Positions 35,515-59,051 are shown, numbered from the stretch's first letter. The stretch: DNA of 64,000 nucleotides from Candidatus Woesearchaeota archaeon (GCA_016215315.1 JACRKG010000054.1:74305-138304); one strand, 5' to 3'. The notes: generated from the letters alone by a model not told the origin. Numbers and translations are program-made.

Positions 35515-36516
35515 GTGGTAGTTTTGTTAAATCAAGATTTACAAGCAGTAATTAGTAAGATCAAAGAACAATCAGGACTTCCAGAGAAAGAAGTACTTCA
35601 AAAAATAGAAGAAAAACTAAACCAATTATCAGGACTAATTTCTAAAGAAGGAGCAGCAAACATTGTTGCAAATGAATTAGGCGTTAAACTCTTTGAAAAT
35701 TCAGGAAAAATAAAAGACATAAGCACAGGCCTAAGAAGCGTAGAAGTGCTAGGAAAAGTAACTGCCCTCTATAACATAACTGAATTTCCAAGACAAGACG
35801 GAACTAACGGAAAAGTAGGCAGTTTCATGATTGGTGACGAAACAGGAACAATGAGAATAGTCTGTTGGGGAACACAAGCAGACGTAATAAAACAATTAAG
35901 CGAAGGAAGTATAGTAAAAATAAAAGGCGGATACGTTAAAGAAAATAACAGAGGGTTCTTAGAAGTTCACATGAATGAAAGAGCAAAAATAGTCGTAGAT
36001 CCAAAAGGAGAAAAAGTAGAAACAGTAAGCAAAACTACTATCCCTGCAGTAGCAGAAAGAAAAAAACTCAACGAAATAACAGAAAACGATGCAAAAGTAG
36101 AAGTCTTCGGAACAGTAAGACAAGTATTTGACCCAGTATTCTTTGAAGTATGCCCAAAATGCGGCAAAAGAACCAAAGCAACAGAAGCAGGATACAACTG
36201 CCAAGAACACGGAAGCATAACTCCAGAATACAGATACGTAATGAACGTTTACTTAGATGACGGCCACGGAACAATAAGAGTAGTATTATTCCACGAACAA
36301 GCGCAAAAATTACTCAAAAAAACCAACCCAGAAATACTAGAGTACAGAACAAACCCAATGAACTTTGAAACAATAAAAAACGATTTATTGGGCGAACAAT
36401 ACAAATTCACGGGAAAAGTAAAAAAGAACGAAGTAATGAACAGAATAGAACTAGTAGCATACGACTTAAAACCAGGAAACCCAGAAGAAGAACTGGCAAA
36501 GTTGCAAAGTAGTTAG
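35515..36516 (+). CDS. rpa: Replication protein A-like ssDNA-binding protein (OB folds plus a zinc ribbon)
   Basis: Tandem OB-fold-like segments and CPKCGKRT...CQEHG. The stop codon TAG is the first triplet of a heptad element. Confidence 0.65.
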   Translation: MVVLLNQDLQAVISKIKEQSGLPEKEVLQKIEEKLNQLSGLISKEGAANIVANELGVKLFENSGKIKDISTGLRSVEVLGKVTALYNITEFPRQDGTNGKVGSFMIGDETGTMRIVCWGTQADVIKQLSEGSIVKIKGGYVKENNRGFLEVHMNERAKIVVDPKGEKVETVSKTTIPAVAERKKLNEITENDAKVEVFGTVRQVFDPVFFEVCPKCGKRTKATEAGYNCQEHGSITPEYRYVMNVYLDDGHGTIRVVLFHEQAQKLLKKTNPEILEYRTNPMNFETIKNDLLGEQYKFTGKVKKNEVMNRIELVAYDLKPGNPEEELAKLQSS

Positions 36517-36746: not shown

Positions 36747-37004
36747 GTTTTTCGAGTGTCTTAAAAAATTATTTGCCTTTTTTATGGACTGTCAATGTCG
36801 CCAAAACCGGCAAGAAACTATGCAAACACACTCTGCGTGGCGACCCAAGCTCTGAAAAAACTAGCAGTTCTTAACAATAATTTGAGAAAATCTGGCAATA
36901 TCGAGCTTTAGCTTTTGTAGCCACTGAACAGTGGTTAAAAATAGAAACATTTAAATATTAGTGTCTATTAGTATTACTAAAATTAATATTTTGGAGGAAT
37001 TAAA
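36747..37004 (+). promoter_or_regulatory. Conserved upstream element, copy A (about 240 nt, relatively GC-rich, three conserved stems), ending in a promoter/RBS for 37005
   Basis: Very high identity to 38297..38533. Stems GTCGCCA/TGGCGAC, AAGCTC/GAGCTT and CCACTG/CAGTGG. Confidence 0.6.
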
Positions 37005-37331
37005 ATGGATTTTATTCATAAATATGAGGCATTTAAAGGTCAATTAGTTGAAGCTTGCACTCTTGTTATGGAGGGTGATGAACCAGTTAGTTTTGTTGGG
37101 ACAGTTAATCCTGTGCAACTTAATCCTGCTTCTTTACATCTTCTTGGAGCTGTAAGAGTAGACCAGCTTGAGGACATTATAGTTGATGATTCAGATAATG
37201 AAAATGAACATCTCAAAATGGTATTAGCTACAAAAGGAGAAGGTCATATTCTATCAACCGAACATGTTTGGGGAATGAGATCAATTGATCAAAAAACAGT
37301 AGGAGATTATAAAACAGAAAAAGATTGGTGA
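37005..37331 (+). CDS. Acidic hypothetical protein (108 aa)
   Basis: The RBS ggagg 8 nt upstream; ORF. Confidence 0.4.
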   Translation: MDFIHKYEAFKGQLVEACTLVMEGDEPVSFVGTVNPVQLNPASLHLLGAVRVDQLEDIIVDDSDNENEHLKMVLATKGEGHILSTEHVWGMRSIDQKTVGDYKTEKDW

Positions 37332-37415: not shown

Positions 37416-37574
37416 ATGCTTGATACAATGGATGCATTATTTTTCATGGACAAATACAAGAAAGAAATAACTGCAGGAGTAATTGCACTATTTGTAGGTT
37501 ATCAATTAATTAGCGATCTTTATTTTACAAATGATAAAGAAACTAGTAAAGCTAAATCACAGGAGAACAAATAA
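37416..37574 (+). CDS. Small membrane protein (52 aa)
   Basis: MLDTMDALFFMDKYKKEITAGVIALFVGYQLI...; ATG inside gcgatATGcttga. Confidence 0.3.
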   Translation: MLDTMDALFFMDKYKKEITAGVIALFVGYQLISDLYFTNDKETSKAKSQENK

Positions 37575-37575
37575 A

Positions 37576-37986
37576 ATGGCTAATGAATTACTTTGTAAAG
37601 CAACTTATCCTTTACTTGGCAATTTGTCAAGTGGTGTTAAAGAAGAAGTAGAAAACTTTCTTGGCAGCGAAAATTTTAGTGCAAGAAATGCAACAGAAGC
37701 ATCTTACTGGACTAATGCAGTGATTTATGCCGGTCTAGGAGTTCACTTAGGAATGGGCACTGATATTAGTGGCATGGGCGCAGTATGTGGTGGTCTTGCA
37801 GGAGCAATGCTTGCAACACTAGAAGGATTTTGCAGAGAAGCGTCTTACAATCATGACATTCAAACTTGGGGTTTAAGCGAAACTGGTGGAAAAACAGCTT
37901 CATTAGTTGGAAAAGTTGTTTCTTTACCTTTAGATGCAATAATGATATTAAATGAAAAAATAAAAGAAAATAAGCGAGGTAAATAA
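37576..37986 (+). CDS. Glycine-zipper small protein (136 aa)
   Basis: GLGVHLGMGTDISGMGAVCGGLAGAMLA. The RBS aggag lies upstream; the ORF-track start at 37531 is less likely. Confidence 0.4.
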   Translation: MANELLCKATYPLLGNLSSGVKEEVENFLGSENFSARNATEASYWTNAVIYAGLGVHLGMGTDISGMGAVCGGLAGAMLATLEGFCREASYNHDIQTWGLSETGGKTASLVGKVVSLPLDAIMILNEKIKENKRGK

Positions 37987-37988
37987 AA

Positions 37989-38192
37989 ATGTATAAACAA
38001 AACGAAAGTCCTTATGTTAGGCCTTCATTTTTGGCTATGTTTTTTGGGGATGTTTTAGGTGGTTTGGAAGCTACTGTAGACAAAGAATCTGTGGAACAAC
38101 CAACTGGAAAAGTGGACGAAAGACAGAATCAAATGAAGATAAAAGGAAACCAAATAAGAAAAGTTCATGTAAGCTATCATAAGAAAGGCTGA
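37989..38192 (+). CDS. Small hypothetical protein (67 aa)
   Basis: Tightly coupled to the upstream gene. Confidence 0.3.
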   Translation: MYKQNESPYVRPSFLAMFFGDVLGGLEATVDKESVEQPTGKVDERQNQMKIKGNQIRKVHVSYHKKG

Positions 38193-38296: not shown

Positions 38297-38533
38297 GTTT
38301 TTGAAGTGCCTTAAAAAAATCATTTGCCTCTTTTTTATGGACTGTTAATGTCGCCAAAACCAGCAAGAAACTCTGCAAACACACTCTGCGTGGCGACCCA
38401 AGCTCTGAAAGTACTAGAAGTTCTTGATATCTATTCAAAAACATTTGGCAATATCAAGCTTTAGCTTTTGTAGCCACTTATCAGTGGTAAATAAACGAAA
38501 CATTTATATACTAGTACATACTAATATTACTAC
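38297..38533 (+). promoter_or_regulatory. Conserved upstream element, copy B; its 3' end carries TTTATATA at -31..-24 of the ATG at 38534, implying a leaderless promoter
   Basis: High identity to 36747..37004. Confidence 0.6.
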
Positions 38534-39049
38534 ATGCAAGTGGTAAAAATAGGTTTAGGATTAGTAATTGCTTTCCTGTTCTTTTTTGCAGGATGGCAAC
38601 TGAATGATTCTTCTAGTGGTGTTTACGCTCAAGAAATAGCACAACCACAAAACATTCAAAAAATCACATTAACAGATAGAGAAAAACCTTCACCACAAGA
38701 CTGGATTAAAGAAGACCAAATACATGTTTATTCTGACAAAATAGTAATTGATTTACCTAACGCTAGATGGGCTAAATTTACTGACACAAATTCAATGGAC
38801 CCAGTATTTGATGCTGGAAGCAATGCAATACAAGTAATTCCAGAAAAAGCAGAACAATTAGCTGTTGGAGACATAATTACTTACCAATCAAAATACTTGA
38901 AAGAAGGAGTAATCCATAGAATTGTAGAAATCAATGAAGACGAACAAGGCTGGTATGCAATAGTAAAAGGAGACAATAACGATGCTCAAGATCCAGAAAG
39001 AGTAAGATTTGAACAAATAAAAAAAGTACTTGTTGGAGTGTTGTACTAA
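38534..39049 (+). CDS. Secreted or membrane-anchored hypothetical protein, first gene of a long operon
   Basis: Signal-peptide-like KIGLGLVIAFLFFFAGWQL. Confidence 0.45.
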   Translation: MQVVKIGLGLVIAFLFFFAGWQLNDSSSGVYAQEIAQPQNIQKITLTDREKPSPQDWIKEDQIHVYSDKIVIDLPNARWAKFTDTNSMDPVFDAGSNAIQVIPEKAEQLAVGDIITYQSKYLKEGVIHRIVEINEDEQGWYAIVKGDNNDAQDPERVRFEQIKKVLVGVLY

Positions 39050-39398
39050 AATGAAACTATGCAGCAGAGATCTAGATTTTTATGCAAGATTGTATGAACA
39101 GCTTAAACCTTCATCTGAAAATATTGCACAATCTGTTGCTGAATTAAATGTTAAATCTTTTTTGGAAAATCTGTTAACGCAAGCTAGCTTAACAACTCCT
39201 GAAGGAAAAGTTGTTCTTGATTTAGTTGTTCCTAAAGAAAATTTAGAAGATGAATTAACCGTATTGTCTCGCAAAAATTATCAAAATTTAACGTTCAAAG
39301 AATTAAAAGAAAAAGATCCAGAAATGTACTACAAACTTATGTTTGATTTATGGTACATAAAAGAATCTGGAGAAATAAAAGAAATAATGAGGTTTTAG
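39030..39398 (+). CDS. Hypothetical protein
   Basis: Overlapping and translationally coupled. Confidence 0.4.
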   Translation: MLECCTKMKLCSRDLDFYARLYEQLKPSSENIAQSVAELNVKSFLENLLTQASLTTPEGKVVLDLVVPKENLEDELTVLSRKNYQNLTFKELKEKDPEMYYKLMFDLWYIKESGEIKEIMRF

Positions 39399-39409
39399 GA
39401 GGTTAGTAA

Positions 39410-40015
39410 ATGAATAAGTCCTTACTAGAAAAATTAAGTAATGATGCGCTAGTAGATCGAGCCATCCAAATTGGAGACAGAACAGGTTATATGGCTTCTT
39501 TTTTTACTGGAGGTTTATTTAGTTTAGAACAATTGCATAATTTATTTGAAGAAATAAAGATTTCAGGACAAGCTCACGAAAAATCCAAATTCTTAGAGTT
39601 AGGTTCTGGTAATGGTGTTGTAGCGATACTGGCAGCAAGTGCAGGATTTGAGTCATACGGAATAGATATTAATAAAGACTTAGTTGGTTTATCCGGAGAA
39701 TTTTTAGAACAGCTCAAAAGAGAAGGAGCAGTTCCAGATGGTCTTCTTTGTAGGTTTGTTGCGGGTGATTATTCTGCAGAAAGAAGAGCAGCTTATGATG
39801 AGCTAGGAATAAAATTTTCTGAAATAGATGTTTTTTACGCTTTCAATACTTTTGAAGAATTAAAGAAAATTTATGAAATGTTTGAAAAACACTCAAAAAA
39901 TTCAGCAAGACTAATACATCCAGGAATCGGAGTTTTAGATTTCATTAGATCGAATTTTGAAAACTTAGAAGCAACAGAAACTGGAAATTTTACAGTTATT
40001 AATAAAAAAGGATAA
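39410..40015 (+). CDS. Class I SAM-dependent methyltransferase
   Basis: Motif I LELGSGNGVVAILAA and an acidic residue after beta-2 (YGIDIN). Confidence 0.55.
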   Translation: MNKSLLEKLSNDALVDRAIQIGDRTGYMASFFTGGLFSLEQLHNLFEEIKISGQAHEKSKFLELGSGNGVVAILAASAGFESYGIDINKDLVGLSGEFLEQLKREGAVPDGLLCRFVAGDYSAERRAAYDELGIKFSEIDVFYAFNTFEELKKIYEMFEKHSKNSARLIHPGIGVLDFIRSNFENLEATETGNFTVINKKG

Positions 40016-40020
40016 AGAAA

Positions 40021-40686
40021 ATGAACGAACAAACACTTGATACGAGAATGGTGAAAGATTGGAAAGAGGTTCTACCTGTTGTAAGACCGTTCTATGAGGG
40101 TTTTTTTGGTGAGAAAGTTCCTGAAGATTTGAGTATTGAGATGGTTCCTTTTGAGGAATTAGTTGCTCATGGTATGAGTAATATTTTAACTGGTGAAATG
40201 AAGCTTGCAATTCAAAGTATGCGTGAAGTGGCCAAGACATTTTTTCATGAAAGAGCACATTACTTATTCGAACAAAATTCTGGACTCGGTGTAAAACACA
40301 GACAAAATAGTGTTAGTGCTCGTACAGGCACGCCTGAAGAGTTATCTTTTTTTGACAATCTCACACTAAAACCTTTTTGGCGTCATTTATTCTTAGAAGA
40401 ATGTGTTGCTTATACTGTTGAGGCAGTATTTGCATTTCAAAATTCTGCAAAAAGCATGCCTGAAGAAGATAAAATATCATTAAAGTCAGATTCAAATTTT
40501 GTTATTGATAATTATGTGAATAAATACAGTGTTAAAAAATTACGAGAAGGAGTAGAAGAGCGTCATGAATGCATAATCATTGGTGCTTACTTAGGAGACA
40601 AATACAAAAACGATCCACAATTATGGTCAAAACTAAAACAATTACGAACTTTAGATGACTTGAGGAGGTTAGTGAATGACTCTTAA
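40021..40686 (+). CDS. HExxH-motif protein (putative minimal zinc metallopeptidase), module 1
   Basis: FFHERAHYLFE, with a downstream glutamate (FLEECVAY). Paralogous to 42468..43166. Confidence 0.5.
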   Translation: MNEQTLDTRMVKDWKEVLPVVRPFYEGFFGEKVPEDLSIEMVPFEELVAHGMSNILTGEMKLAIQSMREVAKTFFHERAHYLFEQNSGLGVKHRQNSVSARTGTPEELSFFDNLTLKPFWRHLFLEECVAYTVEAVFAFQNSAKSMPEEDKISLKSDSNFVIDNYVNKYSVKKLREGVEERHECIIIGAYLGDKYKNDPQLWSKLKQLRTLDDLRRLVNDS

Positions 40687-41176
40687 AACAAGACTAAAAT
40701 GTATTGCAGCAAATAAATTCACATTAATAGGTTATGCTGCGCCAGTTGTTACTTTTGGAATGATGTGCAATACGGATAGTTATTTATTGATTGCCATTGA
40801 AGCAATTGTTGGAAGTGTTATGGGAGTATATGCAGTAGACGCCACAGTTGGGGGAAGAGTAACACAAACAGTATATGAAGAAACAAAAAAATTAATTCAA
40901 GAGACCGGGAAAATTGATGATAACTTTCAGAGATATCAAGGAAGAGCTTATTGTGAAGAAACAGGAATGTACTTGGCAGCAAGAGAATTAGGTGTTCGAG
41001 ATCAGTTAGAGAAAAGAAATGGATTAGAAGCATTTACCCGAGCTTTATTTTGGCATTTTGGTTTTATCAGATATTATGATGAGCCTAGAAGAGAAAAAAT
41101 AAGACAACAATTGAACGAATCAGATAATCTTGATTTACCAAATGGAATAGCACAAATGGTGGAGGATTCACAATGA
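40676..41176 (+). CDS. Hypothetical protein
   Basis: Coupled ORF. Confidence 0.4.
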   Translation: MTLKTRLKCIAANKFTLIGYAAPVVTFGMMCNTDSYLLIAIEAIVGSVMGVYAVDATVGGRVTQTVYEETKKLIQETGKIDDNFQRYQGRAYCEETGMYLAARELGVRDQLEKRNGLEAFTRALFWHFGFIRYYDEPRREKIRQQLNESDNLDLPNGIAQMVEDSQ

Positions 41177-41721
41177 ACGCAGATGTTGAATCAATCCAAG
41201 AATTATGCAGAACATACAAACCATTATGGGAGAAAACATTAATTGAAAGACACTTTCAAGGACAAAATCCTTTACGATCAAAAGGAGTTTGCGGACTAGC
41301 TACGCACATTTTAGGAAATCAGTTATCAAAACATTATTTAATTATGGATCAAGTAAGTAGGGGTGAAAAAATAACTGGAGATAATAGTGGAATAATTATT
41401 TGGGGTTTAGATTATCCTGGTTTTTTTAATCAACACACTTTTTTAGTAATAAGCGACATTATAGTTGATGGAGCATTCCACCAGTACATGGATGCATTTA
41501 ATTTAGCTCACGAAGAACCGAATGATATCTTAGTAGTTCCTTATTCAAGACTTGATGAAAAAGTTGAAGAAATGGTTTCTAAATCAAGAGGAGAATTACC
41601 TCAAGGAGTTAGAGATTTAGAACACTTAAAGCGCGGCCTAAGAAGTATTTGGGATTACAAAATACCTCATTCATATGTTAGAGAATTTCATGGTAAAAGA
41701 GGCTCTCGAAATGAATCCTAA
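41173..41721 (+). CDS. Hypothetical protein with a Cys...His...Asp arrangement reminiscent of transglutaminase-like or papain-like peptidases (weak)
   Basis: KGVCGLATH ... HTFLVISD ... DGAFH. Confidence 0.3.
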   Translation: MNADVESIQELCRTYKPLWEKTLIERHFQGQNPLRSKGVCGLATHILGNQLSKHYLIMDQVSRGEKITGDNSGIIIWGLDYPGFFNQHTFLVISDIIVDGAFHQYMDAFNLAHEEPNDILVVPYSRLDEKVEEMVSKSRGELPQGVRDLEHLKRGLRSIWDYKIPHSYVREFHGKRGSRNES

Positions 41722-42484
41722 TACTGAAGAACTTATAACAGCATTAACTGACTCAGTTTATTTAGAGCGCTCAATGATTGCTGGCACACTTAGTACTGGT
41801 TTTCATCCTTCAATTGTGGGTTTTGACAGAAAATTAGGAAGTCGGGGAAATACTTGCAGACACTTCAAATTAGGATGTCAATGCAGAGCAGTCAGAGAAA
41901 TGCGCAACGAACTACAACACTTAATCAGTCAAGGAATACTAAAACAAGGAAATAAAATTTTGGAATTAGGATCAGCAAATGGATTAATGACGATGCTTTT
42001 TGCAAGTGTTGGATTAAACGCTTACGGGATTGAAATAAATGAAAAATTAGTTAGATTAGCTCACGAAAAATTAGAAGAGTTAAGAAGTAAAGGTTTAATG
42101 CCAGAAAATGTTTATTGCAAATTTGGTAAAGGAAGTTATTACTTAGAAGACTTAGTTAGTGAAAAAGAAAAAAAAGAATTAGTTGAAGGCTTAGGAAGAC
42201 AAGATCCTGCAGTAATATTTCCATTCAGAGAAGGAAACCCATACCAACAATTAGGAATAAATTTTGGAGATTTAGATGTAATTTACGGATTTTTATGGGA
42301 CGAAGATGAAATGAACGTTTGGAAATTATTCGCCAAACACGCAAAACAAAATGCAAAATTATTACACTTAAAAGTAGGAAGAGTAAACGCGTTAGACTTA
42401 ATGGACTTAGGACTAACAACAAGATATGTAGAACTTCCTGCATACTCGAAAACGAATCTTTATTTAATTGAGAAGAGGATATAA
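41711..42484 (+). CDS. Class I SAM-dependent methyltransferase, paralog of 39410..40015
   Basis: ILELGSANGLMTMLFA ... YGIEIN; start chosen at ATG 41711 (the ORF track gives 41675). Confidence 0.55.
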   Translation: MNPNTEELITALTDSVYLERSMIAGTLSTGFHPSIVGFDRKLGSRGNTCRHFKLGCQCRAVREMRNELQHLISQGILKQGNKILELGSANGLMTMLFASVGLNAYGIEINEKLVRLAHEKLEELRSKGLMPENVYCKFGKGSYYLEDLVSEKEKKELVEGLGRQDPAVIFPFREGNPYQQLGINFGDLDVIYGFLWDEDEMNVWKLFAKHAKQNAKLLHLKVGRVNALDLMDLGLTTRYVELPAYSKTNLYLIEKRI

Positions 42485-43166
42485 AATGATAAATCGAACA
42501 ACAAATACGGAAGTAGTGAAAGACTGGAGAGAAGTTGTACCTATTGTTGAGCCTTTTTATGAAAGATTTACTGGAGAAGAAATACCTAACTTGGAAAACA
42601 TTGTTGGGTTGTTCTCTGAACAAGAGCGATCTGATCACCCTGAAATTTTAGGAATTTGTAAGTTTAATTCGGAATCTAAAAATATAAAACTAGCATTATG
42701 TAGTTTTGAAATAACTGCACACAATTTATTTCATGAATTACTACATAGAGCTTATGAACTTGAACATGAATTGACTTTAAAATACAAATCGGCAGCCTCA
42801 AAGAATAATAATTGTAGTAAAGATGAGAGAAAAAAGGCAAAAAAAGAATTTCATAAAATAATCTTTTTGCATGAATGTGTTGCTTACGCAGGATCTTTTG
42901 TTTTTAACTCACTTTTTTTAAACAATAAAGGAGAATATGAAGATCCAAAATACCAAGTTTTTCCTTCAATAGGAAGCGCAAGACAAGCGTTTCTTTTAGC
43001 TGAACTGGAATTGGAAAAAGAACTACCCGGTTTCGAAACTAGAGTTATGTATACTAGGCAAATAGGTGTGTATATTTCAGCAAAATACCAAAACGATCCA
43101 CAATTATGGTCTAAACTAAAACAATTACGAACTCTTAATGATTTAAGGAGGTTAGTCGATGGCTAA
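42468..43166 (+). CDS. HExxH-motif protein, module 2
   Basis: LFHELLHRAYELEHE and FLHECVAYAG. The last 70 nt are about 90% identical to the 3' end of 40021..40686. Confidence 0.5.
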   Translation: MRRGYKMINRTTNTEVVKDWREVVPIVEPFYERFTGEEIPNLENIVGLFSEQERSDHPEILGICKFNSESKNIKLALCSFEITAHNLFHELLHRAYELEHELTLKYKSAASKNNNCSKDERKKAKKEFHKIIFLHECVAYAGSFVFNSLFLNNKGEYEDPKYQVFPSIGSARQAFLLAELELEKELPGFETRVMYTRQIGVYISAKYQNDPQLWSKLKQLRTLNDLRRLVDG

Positions 43167-44133
43167 AATAAACATTCCTGAATTTGCCAGATATGTAGAA
43201 AATTATATTGCCTATTCTTTTGATAGAGAAAATTTTTTGATGAGACTTGTTGAAGAATCTTTAAGCACTCCTTACCAAAAAGAAGGTGTTTGTTTTTGTC
43301 ATAACACTGAATTAGCTTTACGCTTACTAAAAACAGGTTATGACTCGTTGCGTGATGTAAGATCAAGAGATTATTCGATAGCAGTTGCTAAAGCAATGCA
43401 AGAATTCGCAGAACCATTTCCTAGCGGAGATTATAATTTGTGTTATCCGCACTTCTTACTACATGGACTTGAACTAGGAACTTTAGAAGGAGTTGTTGGC
43501 AAGATCAGAAATAATTCTAGAATAATTCATGAAACTTTAGCAATAAGAGCTAAAGTTGCTCACGAGTATGATGTTAAAGAATTTGTTCCAGTTAAAGGAG
43601 TTGAAATGCCTGTAGACCCAAATAATGGCGCGCATTTTGTTGAAGGGTTTCATACCGCTTTAAGCACGGCATTTTGTTACGGTTTGTGTGAAGACTTTTT
43701 TGGAATTACTTTAGCATTAGGAAAACAATGCTCAGGTCATCCACGTGGGTCAAATTATATTGTGAAAGTTAGCTTTTTTTTAGACACAACAAAAAAAGAA
43801 ATTTACATAATAACAATTCAAGGGAAACAATTTAGCGAAGGAATGAACAACGAAGTCGTGAGAGTTAAAAATGAAAAATTCTGGGGAATGTTAACGACAA
43901 GATTAGGAACAAGTCCCAGAACTTTCTTACTGAAAAAAGTAATGGAGTGGGGAAAACAAAACGGTTATGAAAGAATCAAAGTAATAAGAGCTAAAGATCA
44001 CCCGTTAACAATAGAACAACACAAAGGATTCTTAGCAAATTACGAACCAGTAGTAATCAAGGCAGGAATAAATCAAGAAAATGGATGTTATTTAGAAGCA
44101 AAACTAGAGAATATGGTGAACGAAAATGAATGA
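43159..44133 (+). CDS. Hypothetical protein (324 aa)
   Basis: Coupled ORF. Confidence 0.4.
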   Translation: MAKINIPEFARYVENYIAYSFDRENFLMRLVEESLSTPYQKEGVCFCHNTELALRLLKTGYDSLRDVRSRDYSIAVAKAMQEFAEPFPSGDYNLCYPHFLLHGLELGTLEGVVGKIRNNSRIIHETLAIRAKVAHEYDVKEFVPVKGVEMPVDPNNGAHFVEGFHTALSTAFCYGLCEDFFGITLALGKQCSGHPRGSNYIVKVSFFLDTTKKEIYIITIQGKQFSEGMNNEVVRVKNEKFWGMLTTRLGTSPRTFLLKKVMEWGKQNGYERIKVIRAKDHPLTIEQHKGFLANYEPVVIKAGINQENGCYLEAKLENMVNENE

Positions 44134-44476
44134 CCTAGAACTCTACAATCAATCAAAAACTGAAATAAAGAATTTAGAAAAATACATTCCTTTAGCTCAC
44201 GATCTCTTAGAAACCAGATTGACGCCCAACGATAGACGGGCGGTTGAGGAAGGTTTGTTAATTATGGAAATGGATTTAAAACATGAACAAAGCACTATTG
44301 AACGATTAACGCAAGAAATGTTTGAACAAATAGCAACAGAAACAGTTATTGATCAAGAAGAAATCAATACAGAAGAAATTGATGACTGGCTAAAGCAAGA
44401 CGCTGAAACTTTCCAAAAGTTATTGCAAGAAATTTATTTAGAATTAGAAGATTTAAGAGGGAAATACAAAAAATGA
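44126..44476 (+). CDS. Acidic helical hypothetical protein
   Basis: Coupled ORF. Confidence 0.4.
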   Translation: MNDLELYNQSKTEIKNLEKYIPLAHDLLETRLTPNDRRAVEEGLLIMEMDLKHEQSTIERLTQEMFEQIATETVIDQEEINTEEIDDWLKQDAETFQKLLQEIYLELEDLRGKYKK

Positions 44477-45123
44477 AACTCCCTGATTTTATGGAAGCGA
44501 AAGCGGAAGTGAAAAGAATAAATCGTTATATTACATTAGGTGAAAGTCTTTTAGAAAAAAGTTTGAGTGATGAAGAACATTCTTATGTTACCAATAATAT
44601 TGAGTTTTTAAGAGAAAAATTGGTTTGCTATGAAGAAGTAGTTGAATGTTCTAGAGATAAATTTTTTATAGATGCACAAATAGTCGGTGAAGGAGACAAT
44701 CCTTTAAGCATAGAAAACCTAGTTAAAGAAGATGTTAGTTCTTTAGAATGGAGAGTGAGAATTTCCTCTTCAATGAAAAAATTCTTTTCAGGAATAGCCT
44801 ATTTACACATTCCTTTCTTAGGAAAAAAAGCAGAAAATTTAGCAAACTTTTACGAAGAAAGAAAACAACTCTATGAAATAAGATTGCGAAGTGTTAAAAG
44901 CGCAAAATCACTTCAAAAATTACAAGAAGAAAGAAAAAAAGAAAATTATGAAACCATAAAAAAAGAATGCAAAGAAAAAAACATTAAGACTGATGAAGAA
45001 TCATTAGAAAGATTCTCAGAAAATCCTTTACTGTTGATTTATTCTGCTTTTGAATCACTGAATGAATTATACCAAGATCCTTTGAGTGGAGAATATGATT
45101 ATTTGAGGCCTGAAGATGACTAA
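44473..45123 (+). CDS. Hypothetical protein
   Basis: Coupled ORF. Confidence 0.4.
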   Translation: MKLPDFMEAKAEVKRINRYITLGESLLEKSLSDEEHSYVTNNIEFLREKLVCYEEVVECSRDKFFIDAQIVGEGDNPLSIENLVKEDVSSLEWRVRISSSMKKFFSGIAYLHIPFLGKKAENLANFYEERKQLYEIRLRSVKSAKSLQKLQEERKKENYETIKKECKEKNIKTDEESLERFSENPLLLIYSAFESLNELYQDPLSGEYDYLRPEDD

Positions 45124-45820
45124 GCTTTACAAAACAAAATATACTTTAGGAAGTTATGCTGACTTATTTATGAGCGCACCTATTGGTGTTGCTAGAGGTG
45201 TTTCTAAGGCTACTGGTTGTTTATGTGACAAACTTAATTATGAAACTCCTGAATTCTTTAATTGGGAAAAAACAACACAAAACAGTCCAACATACAAAGC
45301 AAGACAATCTTTAAGAGAAAAATTAGATACTGAACCAGGAGTTAAATTCTTACAAAGCAATTTGTTGTCAGTTCCTCCATTTTTTTTAATAGGAATGCCT
45401 GCAGCAGAAGGAATGCATGTTTTAATACAAAAACACATGGGGCAAACACCAGAAATAGTTCAGTATGTAACAAACTCTTTAGGAACATTACTGGCACAAA
45501 TGATTACAGGATATCTTACTTTTATGATTGGAGAAGTTTACTCAAACAAACAAAAATACGTTAATGAAAACGGTAAATTAAGTGCCAAAAAAATAGGTAA
45601 AGGAGTTTTGACTGCACTTAAAACATTTTTAACATTTGATTTATCTTATATCGGAATGAAAACAGCAGGACAATCAACAATGCTTGCTTTAGGAAAATCT
45701 CCCGCAATGGCATCAGCACTAACAGACTTAATGGCATTTCCCGCATATTGGAGCATAGCAATACCTTTAGGACTAAAAAAAGGATTGATTCAAGCGAGAA
45801 AACCAAAGGAGGAAAAATGA
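45116..45820 (+). CDS. Membrane protein
   Basis: Several hydrophobic helices. Confidence 0.4.
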   Translation: MTKLYKTKYTLGSYADLFMSAPIGVARGVSKATGCLCDKLNYETPEFFNWEKTTQNSPTYKARQSLREKLDTEPGVKFLQSNLLSVPPFFLIGMPAAEGMHVLIQKHMGQTPEIVQYVTNSLGTLLAQMITGYLTFMIGEVYSNKQKYVNENGKLSAKKIGKGVLTALKTFLTFDLSYIGMKTAGQSTMLALGKSPAMASALTDLMAFPAYWSIAIPLGLKKGLIQARKPKEEK

Positions 45821-46359
45821 AAATTCCCGATTACAGAAAAGAAATATTGAACAAGAAAATTCAAGAATTAAAAGAAAAATATGGAGAAATTAATTTGGAT
45901 TCTTTAGACAGAATCGGAAGAGATTCTGGTTTTAGCGAAGTTATTCACGTTCCTTACTTAAGATTATGGGGGGCAGTTGGGGAGGATAAGGATAGTAATG
46001 GGGTAGTTCTATACTCTGGAATTTTACCACTTGCAAAAAAACTAGACTTAGCCTACCAATTAGCACCCACACTTTTAGAAGAAGAACAAAAATACCAAAA
46101 TGAAAAAGAAAGAGTGATAGAAATATATTATTTTGTAAAAAAATTATTAGGAACGAATTGGATTGCTTCAAGATCTTTAACCTTGCTCGATGAAATACCT
46201 TCATTAGCAGTTTACATGAGTTACCCTTGGATCAATGTTTTCCTTGGCCTTCCTGTAAAGAAATTACGAGAATCAAAAGAATTATTCAAGGCCAAGGAAA
46301 ACAGAATAAAAGAATTAGGACTGGAACATTTGATTAATGAAGAGGTAATGCCTGAATGA
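45817..46359 (+). CDS. Hypothetical protein
   Basis: ATGA overlap with the upstream stop and the RBS aaggagg; the ORF-track start at 45748 is less likely. Confidence 0.4.
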   Translation: MKIPDYRKEILNKKIQELKEKYGEINLDSLDRIGRDSGFSEVIHVPYLRLWGAVGEDKDSNGVVLYSGILPLAKKLDLAYQLAPTLLEEEQKYQNEKERVIEIYYFVKKLLGTNWIASRSLTLLDEIPSLAVYMSYPWINVFLGLPVKKLRESKELFKAKENRIKELGLEHLINEEVMPE

Positions 46360-47096
46360 AGGATCAAATTTTAGAAAAAAGGTTGGAAGAATTTTGGCAG
46401 CTTCACAACGAATTAAGTCGTACTGCTTTCATTAAAAGAACTGGATTGAAAGGTTTTGATAAAGTAAGATCTGTTTATGCCGATGGAGAGCTTGTTTACA
46501 AATTTAATTTTGGTCAATCAGAAGTAAATGCTTTGGAAAGAATTAAAGGCATAGAAAATGTTCAACAATTAGTTGTTTATGATGGACATGTTTTAGTTAC
46601 AGAGCTTATTAAAGCAAAACATTTCAAAAAAGGCACTCAACCGAAAAGAGAGCATTTAGAAAAATTATTAATAACTCTTTTAGCTTTACGAGATAAAAGT
46701 GTTGGATTCTCAGACATTTATGAAGGTAATTTATTGCACTCACAAGAACTCGGTTTTTTTCCAATAGATCTTTATTATTTAGGTTTGCCCCAAAAACCAG
46801 ATATTGAAGTGCCACGTTTAGCGTCTTGTATGAGTTGTAGTGGTCCTAAATTTTTAGACAGGTATTTAACTTTGTTAGATTTATTTTATGATTTAAATCC
46901 TAAAGTCGCTAGAGATCTTTTGAAAGATTGTGTTTCATTTTCAGAGAATTCGTTTTTTCCTGAATTTTGCGGTCTTAGCGCAACTCAAATAGATTTTAAA
47001 AAAATAAGAACAGTTTTAGAAAAATATCGCCTTTTTTGTGATCATGCACATTCATGTAAGTATACTCTTGGAGGCTATTTTAGACTAATCAAATGA
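46356..47096 (+). CDS. Protein-kinase-like-fold protein (APH/Kdo-kinase-like)
   Basis: VYKF (beta-3 Lys), catalytic-loop-like FSDIYEGNLLH (DxxxxN), and PIDL. Paralogous to 48513..49241. Confidence 0.4.
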   Translation: MKDQILEKRLEEFWQLHNELSRTAFIKRTGLKGFDKVRSVYADGELVYKFNFGQSEVNALERIKGIENVQQLVVYDGHVLVTELIKAKHFKKGTQPKREHLEKLLITLLALRDKSVGFSDIYEGNLLHSQELGFFPIDLYYLGLPQKPDIEVPRLASCMSCSGPKFLDRYLTLLDLFYDLNPKVARDLLKDCVSFSENSFFPEFCGLSATQIDFKKIRTVLEKYRLFCDHAHSCKYTLGGYFRLIK

Positions 47097-47140
47097 AAAA
47101 TGAATAAACTTTATAAACAAATAAATTGGAAGGATAAAAA

Positions 47141-48013
47141 ATGTTAGAAAGATTATTATTGGCGGCAGCAATAGCAATAAGTCCTGTTTGTGCTTTAGCA
47201 CAACAAAATAATAATGAAGCAGTTGTTGAGCACCAAAGAAGTACTTATAGAAATCACGATTATTCTTTAAAGTATTTAGGTTTTAAAGTTGGAGATGTTA
47301 ATGTTAATGCTAAAAATTTTGAAATGAATGATTTTCCTAATTCTGAAGAAGAATTAATGCAAATATTGCAACATTATGATGCTTCACAATTAGAAACAAT
47401 GAGTTTCAATTTTCAAGTAAGAGATGTAGGCAAAGTAGCTAACGCAGTTTCTAGTTTTTGGGATCAAGCTGCTTTCAAAACAATATTAGTAAACGAAAAC
47501 GGAACAAAAAGACCGGTATTATCGATAGCAGACCTGCATGATGGGAATCACACTGAAAGATGGATAACAAAATATGATAGACAAAACTTTACTGTAGAAC
47601 AAACAGTAACGAGAACTGGACAAGAAACCGAACATCACATAAGTACTTACGAAGAAAGTGTTTTCAGAAACATTCTAGATCCTTTAGCAATAATCCATGA
47701 ATTAATGACTCAACAACCATCAGTTAATGATAATTCTTTATTTGCAGGATATTTTTACAGCCCAGGAAATAGTGATACCAATTTCGAAAATTTATTCAGA
47801 GTATCACTGGGTATTGTTCAAGATGGTGAATGGAATGGAGAAATATTATTGCCTGCAGGAGTATTCTTAAAAGAAAACAGTGTTAGAGTAAGAGTACAAT
47901 ATGATAAAGAAGGAACTGCATTAATCCCGTCATACAATAATAAGCTATACTTAAAACCCGGAGACGGTCCTTTCAGTTATACGCCTAGCTGGGCATACAC
48001 TAAACCGAATTAA
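47141..48013 (+). CDS. Secreted hypothetical protein
   Basis: Signal peptide LLLAAAIAISPVCALAQQ. Confidence 0.45.
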   Translation: MLERLLLAAAIAISPVCALAQQNNNEAVVEHQRSTYRNHDYSLKYLGFKVGDVNVNAKNFEMNDFPNSEEELMQILQHYDASQLETMSFNFQVRDVGKVANAVSSFWDQAAFKTILVNENGTKRPVLSIADLHDGNHTERWITKYDRQNFTVEQTVTRTGQETEHHISTYEESVFRNILDPLAIIHELMTQQPSVNDNSLFAGYFYSPGNSDTNFENLFRVSLGIVQDGEWNGEILLPAGVFLKENSVRVRVQYDKEGTALIPSYNNKLYLKPGDGPFSYTPSWAYTKPN

Positions 48014-48015
48014 TG

Positions 48016-48486
48016 TCAAAACAAATAATAAATTCTGAACAAAATCAGAACTATTATTGAATAAAATATTATTTTCTCAGTAAAACTACCAGTAACAAGT
48101 AAGCCGTGAATTTTGAAGTTAGAAAACGGTTGAAAGAATGCAATCCCTTGAATGGTTAATGCATCACCTAACAAATGAGAAAAGTAGCCAACAAAAAAAG
48201 GCAAAGCATAAAATTCTTTCAAGAAATAAAACAATCCTCCACTTAAAATGATTGGAGGAAAAATAGAATGAAAAATACCTCTATGAGAGAATATTAAAGG
48301 AATAATTTTTGATACAAAAATCTTTTTATGAACTTTGGCTTTTGGATGGTCAAGGTCAGGAAATAAAACACCCAACTCAATAAAAATAAAGTAAATAAAA
48401 TAATCAAAAAGATTGCCAAATTTTAGCAAAGGCAAGAAAATAACTCCAAAAAGCAGTCCAAAAACAAAATGAGTTCTTGCAAGCAT
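48016..48486 (-). CDS. Membrane-bound metal-dependent hydrolase-like protein (DUF457/YdjM-like)
   Basis: A polytopic membrane protein with FPDLDH and HS...GD motifs. Confidence 0.4.
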   Translation of the reverse strand: MLARTHFVFGLLFGVIFLPLLKFGNLFDYFIYFIFIELGVLFPDLDHPKAKVHKKIFVSKIIPLIFSHRGIFHSIFPPIILSGGLFYFLKEFYALPFFVGYFSHLLGDALTIQGIAFFQPFSNFKIHGLLVTGSFTEKIIFYSIIVLILFRIYYLF

Positions 48487-48512: not shown

Positions 48513-49241
48513 TTAAAGAATTCTGAAAGTTCCGGCATACCTGTTATAACTAATGTTATCTACTCTGATTCCTCCCAATTCAAAGATGTTTCTTAATTGA
48601 GAATATCCGCAAGAATTTTTTCCTAATTTTTTAAAAGAAAACAAATATTCAATATCATCACGATTAATAAAATAGTTCAGAGTTTTCTCAAATGCTTTCT
48701 TTTCAACATGATAAAGTGTTTTTAACAAACGTGCGTAAGTTTTCAAGAAATATTCGTCTGCTCTTTTTTCTTCCATGAAAAAAGCTAAATTATGAATTGG
48801 CAAAAAAGGATCATTTAATTTCTCATCCTCATTACAAAAATCAATAAGCGTAAAACCCTCTTTTTTAGAATACAACAAATTTTTTCTATGACAATCTCTG
48901 AAAGAAATGTTTTTCTTTCTTAATTTTAACAAAGTCTCGATCAAACTCTCAAGATGTTTATTTGGAACATCAGTTCCTACAACAAATTTTTTTTTATTCA
49001 CGAATTCAGAGACTAGCACGCCTTTTTCGTAAGCAACAAATTGTTGCGCTCCATTAATTCCTTTAGCTCGCTCGAGAGCTTCAGGTTCAGAAGTATCTGG
49101 TTCGAACTTGTAAACAAATTTTTTATCAGTATAAACTCCTAAACCTAATTTGTTTAAACCACTTCCAGCAATAAAATCTTTTTCAGTATTGCTGATGTAA
49201 AGAGAGCTTAATTCGAGAATCTTCTTATCTAAATCCTGCAT
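48513..49241 (-). CDS. Protein-kinase-like-fold protein, paralog of 46356..47096
   Basis: VYKF, FRDCHRKNLLY (DxxxxN), LIDFCNED. Confidence 0.4.
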   Translation of the reverse strand: MQDLDKKILELSSLYISNTEKDFIAGSGLNKLGLGVYTDKKFVYKFEPDTSEPEALERAKGINGAQQFVAYEKGVLVSEFVNKKKFVVGTDVPNKHLESLIETLLKLRKKNISFRDCHRKNLLYSKKEGFTLIDFCNEDEKLNDPFLPIHNLAFFMEEKRADEYFLKTYARLLKTLYHVEKKAFEKTLNYFINRDDIEYLFSFKKLGKNSCGYSQLRNIFELGGIRVDNISYNRYAGTFRIL

Positions 49242-49411: not shown

Positions 49412-49728
49412 TTTTCACTGGACACGGCTTAAACGCAAAATTTTAGCTTTATACGCCTTCAAACCCCGAAAATGGCGTTCACTGGACACTGGACATTTAC
49501 GCGTAGCCTATTTAAATAACTCTTGAACTTAGTATGTTAAGGTTAAAGGATAAGGAAAACAGCAATGAAGTGCCCTCATTTGCTGAAAACCTGATTCCTG
49601 CCTTTTTGATCACACCTCATTTAGGCCCTAAAAAACACACACCTCGACCGCGCTACCTCACCCCCTCCCTCTCCAAGGATCTCAGGAGAGATGAAATAAA
49701 AACCGAATAGGAACGGAGGAAACAAAAA

Positions 49729-50047: not shown

Positions 50048-51109
50048 ATGGCAAACGCTAGATTGGAAGAAAAACAAAAAGAAGAACTATTAATGGAAGA
50101 AGCAGAAGCTGAAGAAGAGTTAGATACAGATGTAAAAGAAGTGTCTGCAGTGCAAAGTACAACCAAAGTTAATGTTGTTGACGACTTACCTGGAGTGGGC
50201 GCAGCAACAATTGACAAACTAAAAAAAGCCGGATTCATCGATTTAATGAGCTTAGCGCTAGCAAAACCAGGAGAATTAATTGGAGCTTGCGAAATAAGCG
50301 AAGTTACAGCAAACAAAGTAATTCATATTGCACGAGCAAACATGGAAATGTGCTTCCTAAGTGGAGCAGAATTATTAGAAAAAAGACAACAAGTACTAAG
50401 AATAACTACGGGGAGTAAAGAATTAGATAAATTATTAGGCGGGGGTATAGAAACTGCTGCGATTACAGAATTTTTTGGAAAGTATGGTTCAGGAAAAAGC
50501 CAATTAGCTCACGTTCTAGCAGTAAGAGCACAATTGCCTGTAGAAAAAGGAGGGGCTGGTGGAGTAGTTGTTTTCGTGGATACAGAAAGTACTTTCAGAC
50601 CTGAAAGAATAATACAAATAGCAAAAGGACTAAATTTGAATCCTGATGAGGTATTAAAAAATATCAAAGTTGCAAGAGCATTCAATTCAGAACACCAAAT
50701 TTTGTTATCAGAAAAAGTCGAAGATTTAATAAAAAAACAAGAACAGCCAGTAAGAATGCTAATTATTGATTCTCTGGTAGCTCATTTCAGAGCAGAATTT
50801 GTTGGTAGAGGAACACTCGCTGACAGACAACAAAAAATAAACCGACACATGCACACACTAATGAAGTTAGCAGATACGTACAATCTTGCAGTTTACGTAA
50901 CAAACCAAGTAATGGCAAAACCAGACATGTTCTTTGGCGACCCAACAGAAGCAGTAGGAGGACACATTGTAGCCCACAACTCAACATACAGAGTTTACTT
51001 GAGAAGAGGAAAAAAGGACACTAGAGTAGCTAAAATGGTTGACTCACCTAACTTACCAGAAGGTGAAGCAATATTCGGAGTAAGCGAAAAAGGAATTATT
51101 GATGTTTAA
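50048..51109 (+). CDS. radA: DNA repair and recombination protein RadA
   Basis: An N-terminal HhH ([15 protein letters not shown]), Walker [13 protein letters not shown], and a RecA-fold length typical for RadA. Confidence 0.85.
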
Positions 51110-57208: not shown

Positions 57209-57817
57209 ATGCCTGAATCATTGTTAGGAGGAGTTATAACGTTTTTAGAAAAATTGGGCGTTTATGATGTAGTGTTACCTTTCTTGTTGGTTTTTACTAT
57301 TGTTTTTGCAATTCTTGAAAAAACTAGAGTTTTTGGTGAAGAAAAAGTCGGTGATAAATCGTACTCGAGAAAGAATCTTAACGCAATGGCGGCTTTCATA
57401 ATAGGTTTTCTCGTCATAGCTTCTTCACAATTAGTTCAAGCAATCTCACAAATTTCTGCTCACGTGTTTGTAATACTTTTATTAATTGTATTCTTCTTGT
57501 TATTAGTTGGTTCTTTTTATGGCGAAGGAAAAATTGGCAAAGAAGGTTTACAGGAAGAATGGGCTAAAAATATTTTTATTGTAGTTATTTTTTTAGCAAT
57601 TGCATTTGTTTTTCTTAATGCTTTACCTGCAGGGCAAGGAAAGACTTGGCTTGAATGGATCTTTCAAGGTTCAGGAAAAGCAGTCAGTAGTCCAGCAACT
57701 GCATCGATAGTTTTAATAATCCTAATAGTAATATTTATAAGATACGTTTCCAAATCAGATAATAGTGGAGGCTCAGGTGGCTCTACTGAAGAAAAGAAGG
57801 ATAAAAAAGATGGATAA
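57209..57817 (+). CDS. Membrane protein, tandem paralog 1 of 3
   Basis: Three similar ~200-aa polytopic proteins in a row. Confidence 0.45.
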   Translation: MPESLLGGVITFLEKLGVYDVVLPFLLVFTIVFAILEKTRVFGEEKVGDKSYSRKNLNAMAAFIIGFLVIASSQLVQAISQISAHVFVILLLIVFFLLLVGSFYGEGKIGKEGLQEEWAKNIFIVVIFLAIAFVFLNALPAGQGKTWLEWIFQGSGKAVSSPATASIVLIILIVIFIRYVSKSDNSGGSGGSTEEKKDKKDG

Positions 57818-57827
57818 ATGAGGTGAA

Positions 57828-58439
57828 ATGATGCTATTTCAATATGGTGGTTTTGTATTTCAAGACGCATTAAGACAATTACAATACTGGGGAGTCTGGG
57901 ATGTACTAATTCCTTTTGCATTAATATTTGCAATAATTTTTTCAATTCTAAAAAAAACAGAAATTTTTCATAACGATGGAGTAAACATAGTTGTAGCATT
58001 ATCAACATCTTTATTGGCAATAATTCCTCATGTTTCTGGAGGATATCCACAAGGATTTGATGTTGTATTAATAATCAATCAGTTCTTTCCTCAAATAGCA
58101 TTAGTTCTTATTTCAGTAGTAATGGTTTTAATAATGACTGGATTGTTAGTTGATAAAGCAAATTATAAATTAGCAACAACTTTAGGTAAATGGGCTGCTT
58201 TAGGTTCAGCATTAATAGTTGGATTTTTGATGATTAAAGCAATCAACCCTGATCTTGGTGGTGCAAGTACAAGTTTCTTAAATGATCCTCAATTACAAGC
58301 ATTTGTTGTAGCAATATTAGCATTCGGATTAGTAGTTCTGTTTATTACAAAAGGATTTGGCGGAGGAGATGCTGCTGCTAAAGCAAAAGCTGCTGCCGCT
58401 GCAGCTCCAACATTTACCTGGGTTCCACCTAAACAATAA
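57828..58439 (+). CDS. Membrane protein, tandem paralog 2 of 3
   Basis: Paralogy with its neighbours. Confidence 0.45.
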   Translation: MMLFQYGGFVFQDALRQLQYWGVWDVLIPFALIFAIIFSILKKTEIFHNDGVNIVVALSTSLLAIIPHVSGGYPQGFDVVLIINQFFPQIALVLISVVMVLIMTGLLVDKANYKLATTLGKWAALGSALIVGFLMIKAINPDLGGASTSFLNDPQLQAFVVAILAFGLVVLFITKGFGGGDAAAKAKAAAAAAPTFTWVPPKQ

Positions 58440-58442
58440 ATT

Positions 58443-59051
58443 ATGGCAACATTCCTCGACTTTGGATTATTGAAGCCTTTTGAGCAAATATTTCCATTCT
58501 TGTTCTTAATGGTATTCTTGTATGCTGTGTTTTCAAGATTTGATATTTTTAAAGAGAGGCCTGCATTTTCTGCCATTGTTGCATTTGTATTATCAATCAT
58601 GGCAATGCTTTCACCAATACTAGTAAGAACGATTAATTTAATGGCGCCATGGTTAGTATTATTCATTATTTTGATAGTTATTCTAATGCTCGTTTATCAA
58701 ACGTTCGGAATCAAGCAGGATTCAATTGTTAATGTTATTACCGGAGATAAAGTTGGTGAAACATTCTCTTGGGTGATACTTATCATTGTTGCTTTAATTT
58801 TTATTGGAAGCTTAACGTCAGCAATAAGTGAACAAGAAGGTTTTCAAAAATTACAAACAGGAGGAAAAGTAAGTCCGGTTCCAGGACAAACTCCTAGTGT
58901 ATCTCCTATTGATGCATCAAAATTAGTTGAGCCAGGTTCAGAAAAAGAAGATTTCTTTAAAACAATATTCCATCCAAAAGTATTAGGAATAATTGTTATA
59001 ATGTTAATAGCAGTATTTGCAATACAAAGACTAAGCGCAGAAGCAAGTTAA
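58443..59051 (+). CDS. Membrane protein, tandem paralog 3 of 3
   Basis: Paralogy with its neighbours; the stop abuts a heptad element. Confidence 0.45.
   Translation: MATFLDFGLLKPFEQIFPFLFLMVFLYAVFSRFDIFKERPAFSAIVAFVLSIMAMLSPILVRTINLMAPWLVLFIILIVILMLVYQTFGIKQDSIVNVITGDKVGETFSWVILIIVALIFIGSLTSAISEQEGFQKLQTGGKVSPVPGQTPSVSPIDASKLVEPGSEKEDFFKTIFHPKVLGIIVIMLIAVFAIQRLSAEAS

Follow-up and report, generated by a model that had tools for sequence, protein, structure and literature searches.

Our analysis of a 64,000-nt stretch of DNA from a Candidatus Woesearchaeota archaeon of the DPANN group (the window hereafter; part of a 142-kb contig with NCBI locus tags HZA97_101xx) points to a long operon of 14 translationally coupled genes, g01 to g14, followed by three associated genes, g15 to g17. 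The reading that we favor, tentatively and at somewhat less than an even chance, is that this block is an accessory operon for maturation of the envelope or cell surface, restricted to a small group of Woesearchaeota and made up of a stable core of membrane and secreted proteins together with a changeable set of cytoplasmic modifying enzymes. Envelope components are found at both ends of the block, and catalytic motifs are intact in four types of enzyme. The analysis establishes the gene structure, folds, conserved motifs, purifying selection, and synteny; that the products cooperate, what substrates they use, and that they serve the envelope are inferences. Specifically, a single leaderless-type promoter would drive g01 to g14, while g15 and the opposite-strand gene g16, of the YdjM family, would have promoters of their own. 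The stable part would constitute envelope-like machinery (g01, g05, g12, g15, g16, one minimal gluzincin, and g06), and the changeable part would comprise class I methyltransferases, a second gluzincin, g09, and RIO/OspG-like kinases. On the cytoplasmic side of the membrane, these enzymes might cleave proteins and modify them covalently (methylation, acylation, or phosphorylation), or possibly act on molecules linked to the membrane, with the outcome that the envelope or cell surface is built or remodeled. The signal peptidase I encoded by g01 would mature one or more exported components, for example g15.

The block lies between a gene for an RPA-type single-stranded DNA-binding protein (35515-36516) and the RadA gene (50048-51109), and GC content is about 0.32 throughout the window with no shift at the locus. 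Fourteen plus-strand open reading frames (ORFs) follow one another without a break from 38534 to 47096. With starts chosen by orthologue or independent gene-call support for g02 (39051), g07 (41711), g08 (42486), and g13 (45817), the gaps at successive junctions from g01 to g14 are +1, +11, +5, -11, -4, -11, +1, -8, -8, -4, -8, -4, and -4 nt. ATGA overlaps occur at 4 of the 13 junctions, and GGAGG or GAGG, resembling a Shine-Dalgarno (SD) sequence, precedes most of the starts. A preliminary description of this DNA had proposed a coupled operon of at least 14 genes from 38534, and the 14 ORFs and 13 tight junctions agree with it. Its range of -47 to +6 nt has to be revised, although the tight coupling itself stands: g02 and g03 are 11 nt apart, and -47 is obtained only if g07 begins at the ATG at 41675. 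Genes g01, g15, and g16 each have a TATA-like box at a distance of exactly 31 nt before the ATG, and there is none at that position before g02 through g14. Because of this distribution, we read the block as having one operon promoter and a separate promoter for g15. The arrangement fits a single leaderless-type promoter at g01 that drives g01 to g14, with the geometry anticipated for a promoter at about 38534, and g15 is probably transcribed from its own.

The same compactness is compatible with an operon of convenience, in which a compact genome has gathered unrelated genes of its own lineage behind the promoter of a housekeeping signal peptidase, so that they are co-transcribed with no common pathway. 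Tight packing is common in the window: 12 of the 39 other same-strand junctions (31%) are of 15 nt or less, a figure that rests on a crude gene call, and there is another run of 6 genes, the second longest. However, the unbroken run of 14 genes far exceeds any other in the window. Assuming independence, the chance of 13 tight junctions in a row is, by our arithmetic, 0.31^13 or about 2e-7, so that the run is exceptional for this window. We return to this explanation below, where gene content is compared among relatives.

Several products are associated with the membrane or with export. By profile and motifs, g01 is a signal peptidase I of the archaeal/ER type. Its TIGR02228 score is 56.7 bits, above the cutoff of 51.85; the protein also matches the SipW model and is hydrophobic over residues 1-24, as expected of a membrane anchor. 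In signal peptidase I of the S26B type, the catalytic Ser lies in SMxP, the His in HR[IV], and the Asp in GDNN; the corresponding boxes of g01 are NSMDP, IHRIV, and KGDNND. The operon had been described as opening with a signal-peptide protein, which we correct here: the first product is the signal peptidase itself. The highly conserved g12 is probably located in the membrane. It has only weak CrcB-like family matches, and its profile retrieved no relatives from GTDB representative genomes or JGI metagenome contigs. At the other end of the block, the secreted protein that was expected at 47141 (g15) has a hydrophobic N-terminus followed by an ALA-QQ site. Its family comprises only 5 clusters among 1.84 billion representatives, and its profile found nothing in the PDB. 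The last 50 amino acids (aa) of g15 bear a weak likeness to the fibronectin type III (FN3) repeats of P0068, a 3592-aa protein of the representative library. P0068 is a giant with more than 20 FN3 domains, ten of whose repeats are matched by the g15 C terminus. Finally, the membrane hydrolase-like protein noted at 48016 (g16) can be placed in the YdjM family, with a PF04307 match of 76.7 bits (E 2e-21; cutoff 29) and transmembrane segments. SipW-type operons, including tapA-sipW-tasA of Bacillus and archaeal TasA-like pilus loci, likewise combine a signal peptidase I of the ER/archaeal type with a beta-rich secreted protein in one gene cluster. Unlike the secreted proteins of those operons, g15 shows no Pfam similarity to TasA/camelysin-type models at E up to 0.1; it has a promoter of its own and is separated from g01 by 8 kb and twelve unrelated genes.

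Among and beside these envelope components are enzymes that come in part as duplicates; the paralogue pairs reported earlier hold for g03/g07, g04/g08, and g14/g17. The first pair, g03 and g07 (29% identity, E 2e-27), is supported as having the class I S-adenosylmethionine (SAM) methyltransferase fold that had been proposed for the genes at 39410 and 41711. Motif I (E/D-x-G-x-G-x-G; here ELGSGNG/ELGSANG) and the acidic residue that closes strand 2 (YGIDIN/YGIEIN) are invariant in the alignment, g03 having ELGSGNG and GIDIN. The g07 profile matches SAM methyltransferase structures at E 2e-4, and g07 reaches 22.7 bits against PCMT (cutoff 20.3) over the SAM-binding region only. Methyltransferase matches of g03 in Pfam are all below threshold (best E 3e-5), and all specific curated models are far below their cutoffs for both proteins apart from the partial PCMT match. 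Both proteins match many methyltransferases over the SAM-binding region only, from which no class of substrate can be read off.

The second pair, g04 and g08 (35% identity, E 2e-32), belongs to a family of only 8 proteins among 5.8 billion. In this family H76, E77, H80, E84, and E127 are invariant, and the N-terminal and C-terminal motifs are strongly conserved. An AlphaFold model of g04 (predicted local distance difference test score [pLDDT] 84.3, predicted template modeling score 0.86) places H76, E77, and H80 on a predicted helix at 67-87 and E127 on another at 105-140. The invariant H76, E77, H80, and E127 support the prediction of metallopeptidase-like proteins. Searches with the model by Foldseek against the PDB returned nothing significant, and the family profile gave only a spurious best match there (E 0.22). 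Furthermore, g04 has no Pfam match, and other members match SprT-like, Zincin_1, and DUF6782 models only at E 0.06 or worse. Since no structure matched and no Pfam family was reached, we call g04 and g08 gluzincin-like and do not count them in any described peptidase family. Compared with known gluzincins (M1 aminopeptidase catalytic domain, M3 oligopeptidase F, and M4 thermolysin), g04 is a free-standing domain of 221 aa outside Pfam, with 47 residues between His80 and Glu127 in its family and with family-specific VxDWxEVxPxxxPFYExF and LWxKLKQLRTLxDL motifs at its N and C termini. We also compared the 3' ends of these genes (40600-40690 and 43080-43170 in the window and their equivalents in contigs L002, L004, L006, and L014). 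The final ~25 codons of every HExxH gene (LWSKLKQLRTLDDLRRLV) are near-invariant and highly similar in DNA as well, and they lead into a AGGAGGTTAGTnnATG junction that provides the SD sequence and start for the next gene; GGAGGTTAGT is also present ahead of g03.

The kinase-like gene at 46356 and its opposite-strand paralogue, both recognized in the preliminary description, make up the third pair (g14 and g17; 32% identity, E 1e-28). By profile and motif, these proteins of ~245 aa fall within the protein-kinase-like superfamily and appear RIO-like. The profile of their 6-member family matches the Rio2 kinase of Archaeoglobus fulgidus (1tqi) at E 4.1e-6 over 114 positions, within the kinase domain only (chain residues 126-238). 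K49, E56, D120, N125, and D138 are invariant in 6/6 members and align with the HGDLSQYN and IDF motifs of Rio2, such that the catalytic Lys, the helix-C Glu, the D-x4-N loop, and the metal-binding Asp are all present in g14 and g17. These features are shared with RIO kinases and with the RIO-like effector kinases OspG and NleH, which are likewise small. In contrast to those proteins, g14 and g17 stay below all family cutoffs and belong to a family of six. There is no RIO1 match, no kinase cutoff of Pfam or NCBIfam is reached, and APH, OspG, ABC1, and Pkinase matches in several members are below threshold.

A fourth type of enzyme is represented by g09, which the preliminary description had left unclassified. 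In its predicted structure (pLDDT 79.6), a helical N-terminal half is joined to a beta-rich C-terminal half, and the latter is assigned a GNAT fold on the basis of the model. The canonical acyl-CoA pyrophosphate loop of GNAT enzymes is Q/R-x-x-G-x-G/A; the equivalent stretch of g09 reads RLGTSPRTF. No Acetyltransf model of Pfam is matched, and the profile found only a chance-level hit in the PDB (E 0.59). Proteins of Nanoarchaeota and Desulfobulbales bacteria are among the 49 relatives of g09, and matches to VirK/YbjX (DUF535, PF04393) are present below threshold in 5/48 family members (best E 5e-4), g09 of the window scoring 14 bits against a cutoff of 27. Its missing Pfam match and noncanonical loop distinguish g09 from GNAT acyltransferases. 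It differs from both GNAT and VirK/YbjX proteins in having an additional helical domain at the N terminus, within which further His, Arg, and Glu residues are invariant, and in being encoded alone in other genomes. The biochemistry of VirK/YbjX is itself unsettled (PMC13109725).

The remaining products are orphans. The L002 homologue of g06, 48% identical, also has C40, H89, and D99, which are candidates for a triad of the transglutaminase/papain-like kind; neither Pfam nor, by profile, the PDB gave a match for g06. No relatives of g02, g10, g11, or g13 were found in Pfam, NCBIfam, PHROGs, PADLOC, or the PDB, paralogy between g10 and g11 is weak (E 0.004), and a phmmer search of the PDB with 12 concatenated products returned nothing. 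Across the block, only the signal peptidase I, the YdjM protein, and the partial PCMT match rise above a curated family threshold. Each enzyme is a free-standing and strongly diverged form of a known superfamily (gluzincin, RIO-like kinase, GNAT/VirK-like protein, or class I methyltransferase).

Table 1. Features at the locus. L-numbers are contigs of related genomes (see text); percentages are amino acid identities of orthologues unless stated otherwise.
Feature	Position (nt)	Strand	Element or predicted product	Basis	Orthologues
Sister element	36747..36979	+	Second copy of the 236-nt element found ahead of g01; precedes u1-u3	84% identical to 38297-38533	
u1	37005-37331	+		ORF	
u2	37531-37986	+		ORF	87% conserved in L014
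u3	37989-38192	+		ORF	78% conserved in L014, 52% in L002
Upstream element	38297..38533	+	Upstream element and operon promoter	TATA TTTATATA at 38503-38510, 23 nt ahead of ATG 38534	
g01	38534..39049	+	Archaeal/ER-type signal peptidase I, N-terminal membrane anchor	TIGR02228, motifs	88% L014, 71% L002
g02	39051..39398	+	115 aa		65% L014
g03	39410..40015	+	Class I SAM methyltransferase, paralogue of g07	Sub-threshold Pfam, motifs	
g04	40021..40686	+	Minimal gluzincin-like HExxH protein	Paralogue of g08	
g05	40676..41176	+	Small membrane protein, transmembrane segment ~35-56, soluble C-terminal part	Hydropathy	54% L002, 56% L014, short form 27% L007
g06	41173..41721	+	Conserved Cys/His/Asp protein	Residues shared with L002 homologue	
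g07	41711..42484	+	Class I SAM methyltransferase	PCMT match, profile against structures	77-81% L006, L007
g08	42486..43166	+	Second gluzincin-like HExxH protein	Same invariant residues as g04	
g09	43159..44133	+	Helical N-terminal domain and GNAT-fold domain, distantly VirK/YbjX (DUF535)-like		
g10	44126..44476	+	Acidic helical, 116 aa		78%
g11	44473..45123	+	Acidic helical, 216 aa		61-62%
g12	45116..45820	+	234 aa, moderately hydrophobic, highly conserved	Orthologues	83-85% L006/L007, 67% L002
g13	45817..46359	+	180 aa		66-69%
g14	46356..47096	+	RIO/OspG-like minimal protein-kinase-like protein	Family profile, invariant residues	
g15 promoter	47110..47117	+	TATA-like box TTTATAAA	23 nt ahead of g15 ATG	
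g15	47141..48013	+	Secreted beta-rich protein with signal peptide	Hydrophobic N-terminus, ALA-QQ site	83% L007, 61% L002
g16	48016..48486	-	YdjM-family membrane-bound metal-dependent hydrolase, convergent with g15	PF04307; own TATA at -31	Conserved in L002, L007, L018
g17	48513..49241	-	Kinase-like paralogue of g14		75% L018

The division into a stable and a changeable part emerges from comparison with related genomes, in three of which the block occupies the same site between RPA and RadA. These are represented by contigs L014, L006, and L018 (sample SRR22388050, inferred to be one genome), L007, and L002. Gene order in SRR22388050 is u2, u3, g01, g02, g04, g05, then g06, g07, an HExxH gene, g09 to g15, and then g15, g16, g17, an 85-aa ORF, and RadA, with breaks between the three contigs. 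This is the order of the window minus g03, which is absent between g02 and g04 in L014. Contig L007 begins with a g07-like methyltransferase, followed by g09, a short g05-like gene, g10 to g15, g16, a 67-aa remnant of g17, and RadA; no HExxH gene lies between the methyltransferase and g09, the position of g08. The remnant (L007 6395-6598) and the missing HExxH gene are signs of recent gene decay within the cluster. L002 is more distant (RadA 84% identical) and carries, from RPA to RadA, g01, one HExxH gene, a g06 homologue, g12, g05, two acidic helical proteins, g15, and g16, with no methyltransferase, g09, g13, or kinase-like gene in the block. The two acidic proteins (155 and 219 aa), which occupy the positions of g10 and g11, reached hhalign probabilities of only 17% and 2% and were not counted in the shared core. 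The g06 homologue of L002 (10680-11399) starts with the N-terminal motif of the HExxH family (58% identity over 26 residues), which suggests a past recombination or deletion that fused the start of an HExxH gene to g06. Taken together, g01, an HExxH gene, g06, g05, g12, g15, and g16 are present in L002 and in the other two genomes wherever contigs cover them, and g03, g07, g08, g09, g14, g17, and g13 vary.

The cluster genes are real and under purifying selection. Ratios of nonsynonymous to synonymous substitution (dN/dS) against L007 orthologues are 0.11-0.33 for all cluster genes tested; RadA and ribosomal protein S2 give 0.05-0.08. Likewise, cluster proteins are 55-83% identical to those of L007 (g14 55%, g11 62%, g13 66%) versus 85-96% for flanking housekeeping proteins (RadA 96%, S2 95%). 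In-place duplication, along with families as narrow as 8, 6, and 5 members or clusters, indicates innovation within the clade.

Outside the clade, the families occur apart. Among GTDB representatives, the HExxH profile retrieved a single contig (L004/L016; CAYHXI010000020.1), labeled as an uncultured Methanosarcinales archaeon, on which two tandem HExxH genes stand in another context: they come after unannotated proteins of 798 and 195 aa, near an intein-containing DNA polymerase B gene and an AbiEii gene. A g17-like gene is found elsewhere in L009, g15 alone in L015, and g09 alone in L010, L012, and L017. Gene order is thus conserved among close relatives, whose flanks are syntenic as well, but not beyond them. 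The proposed duplicated modules of methyltransferase plus HExxH protein are real as paralogue pairs but not as an obligate unit: L014, of the closest relative, lacks g03, a methyltransferase is found without an HExxH gene in L007, and HExxH genes are found without a methyltransferase in L002 and L004.

A number of these observations weigh against the envelope-maturation reading. Enzyme genes come and go between genomes that have 84-96% identity in their housekeeping proteins, and homologues of the HExxH, kinase-like, g09, and g15 proteins are each present without the other cluster genes in distant genomes. The flanks are syntenic too, and shared descent alone could produce synteny in close relatives. 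Furthermore, the signal peptidase may be merely a housekeeping enzyme, the cofactor loop of g09 is noncanonical, g02, g06, g10, g11, and g13 have no assigned fold, and no substrate has been identified. Many of these points suit the operon of convenience, as does the fact that no known multi-gene system matches: its members are independently lost and gained in close relatives, and each family tested is found alone elsewhere. Yet several families are confined to the same tiny clade and duplicated in place, and enzymes of protein-modifying types beside membrane and secreted proteins make a coherent theme. Because synteny among close relatives is weak evidence and every traceable family also occurs alone, we consider that explanation, though doubtful in its own right, nearly as likely as the one we favor.

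Turnover of gene content and the faster evolution of cluster proteins relative to the flanks could also reflect a toolkit for host interaction or conflict. The enzymes, with the Cys/His/Asp protein among them, would then be effectors that act on proteins of a host or competitor at the DPANN-host interface, with the membrane and secreted proteins serving for attachment or delivery. In line with this idea, OspG and NleH, which are effector kinases, are also reached by the kinase profile, and the g15 C terminus weakly resembles the FN3 repeats of a giant surface-type protein. However, the OspG and NleH matches are weak (E 0.04-0.9), the enzymes lack export signals, neither a secretion ATPase nor a channel was recognized, every gene has a dN/dS well below 1, and no host is known. 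We judge such a toolkit to be unlikely. We are equally skeptical of a further proposal, an undescribed, DPANN-specific protein-modification system at the contact between symbiont and host, in which the kinases, gluzincins, GNAT protein g09, methyltransferases, and a candidate Cys/His/Asp hydrolase would modify the cell's own surface or host proteins and g05, g12, and g15 would form an apparatus on the envelope side.

The types of enzyme also recall the tailoring sets of ribosomally synthesized and post-translationally modified peptides (RiPPs). A small precursor might be matured by the joint action of a kinase, methyltransferase, N-acyltransferase, and leader peptidase and exported by g12. As in class III/IV lanthipeptide and other RiPP clusters, kinase-like, methyltransferase, acyltransferase, and peptidase genes are co-located, and there are weak matches of g17 to the LanKC kinase region (E 0.003) and of g07 to the daptide methyltransferase (E 0.03). 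However, both lie far below curated cutoffs and involve generic motifs only. Unlike RiPP clusters, the block has no lyase or cyclase domain, YcaO, radical-SAM, or ATP-grasp protein, recognizable precursor, or dedicated ABC exporter in Pfam and NCBIfam scans of all products, and we regard peptide maturation as very improbable. Least probable of all is an integrated mobile element or antivirus defense island. Variable gene content at a fixed chromosomal site might be expected of one, and a VapBC-like PIN pair has been inserted nearby in L002, but a tRNA scan found no tRNA genes in the window, no integrase-type family was matched among the scanned products of the cluster, u1-u3, and RPA, GC content equals that of the flanks, and the position between RPA and RadA is fixed. 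PADLOC matches (mad2, E 2e-7 over 55 aa; PD-T4-6, E 0.0015) are below threshold and reflect a generic SAM motif and kinase loop; there were no meaningful PHROG matches, and the HExxH, kinase-like, and g09 profiles found no relatives in IMG/VR. On the strength of the missing tRNA genes and integrase-type matches, the unchanged GC content, and the fixed position, we rejected the mobile-element reading. Both of these explanations rank low because they fail their defining features. At the level of the whole system, comparisons with PADLOC, phage modules, RiPP cores, and TasA loci therefore agree with the preliminary view that no single described pathway fits.

Upstream of the operon, a 236-nt element that includes the TATA box is present in 2 copies only within the window, one ahead of g01 and one ahead of u1, and it also precedes g01 in L014 (76%). 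Judging from its duplication, the element may regulate both sets of genes and so connect u1-u3, for which profile scans found no family matches, with the operon. The element contains the hairpins GTCGCCA...TGGCGAC and CCACT...AGTGG. We considered a structured RNA and rejected it, with folding z-scores of -0.66 and -0.95 and compensatory changes in 3/49 pairs. In L002, a PIN-domain gene and its small upstream partner, VapBC-like and absent from the window, lie just upstream of the signal peptidase gene (8735-9365).

Other observations concern the surroundings of the block. An Rfam scan of the window returned nothing. The noncoding spacer between g17 and the 85-aa ORF (49414-49725) has a GC content of ~0.42, compared with 0.32 for the genome, is 91% identical to L007 6587-6896, and is partly conserved in L002; it had no Rfam match at E up to 1 and might represent either a small RNA not yet described or a long 5' leader. 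Farther along the window (57209-59051) are three tandem genes, each for a membrane protein of ~202 aa. Distant paralogy connects the first with the second (24% identity, E 2e-7), Acyl_transf_3 is matched weakly by the first, and genes of similar size occur at the same relative position in L007.

Much of the gene content of DPANN archaea is of unknown function, and little is settled about the way in which these cells make their surfaces and deal with their hosts. The locus described here, whose known distribution is a handful of metagenome-derived genomes, provides fold-level handles on families that were otherwise orphans, namely a gluzincin, a GNAT/VirK-like protein, and a RIO-like kinase. 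All are encoded in a single block that is co-transcribed, evolves fast, changes in content, and adjoins envelope components. In addition, the g09 family is common to Desulfobulbales bacteria and may help to define the biochemistry of VirK/YbjX-like proteins. If the enzymes do not act together, the block would exemplify the assembly of long operons from unrelated genes of a single lineage in compact genomes. If they do act together, it would represent a new kind of protein-modification module.

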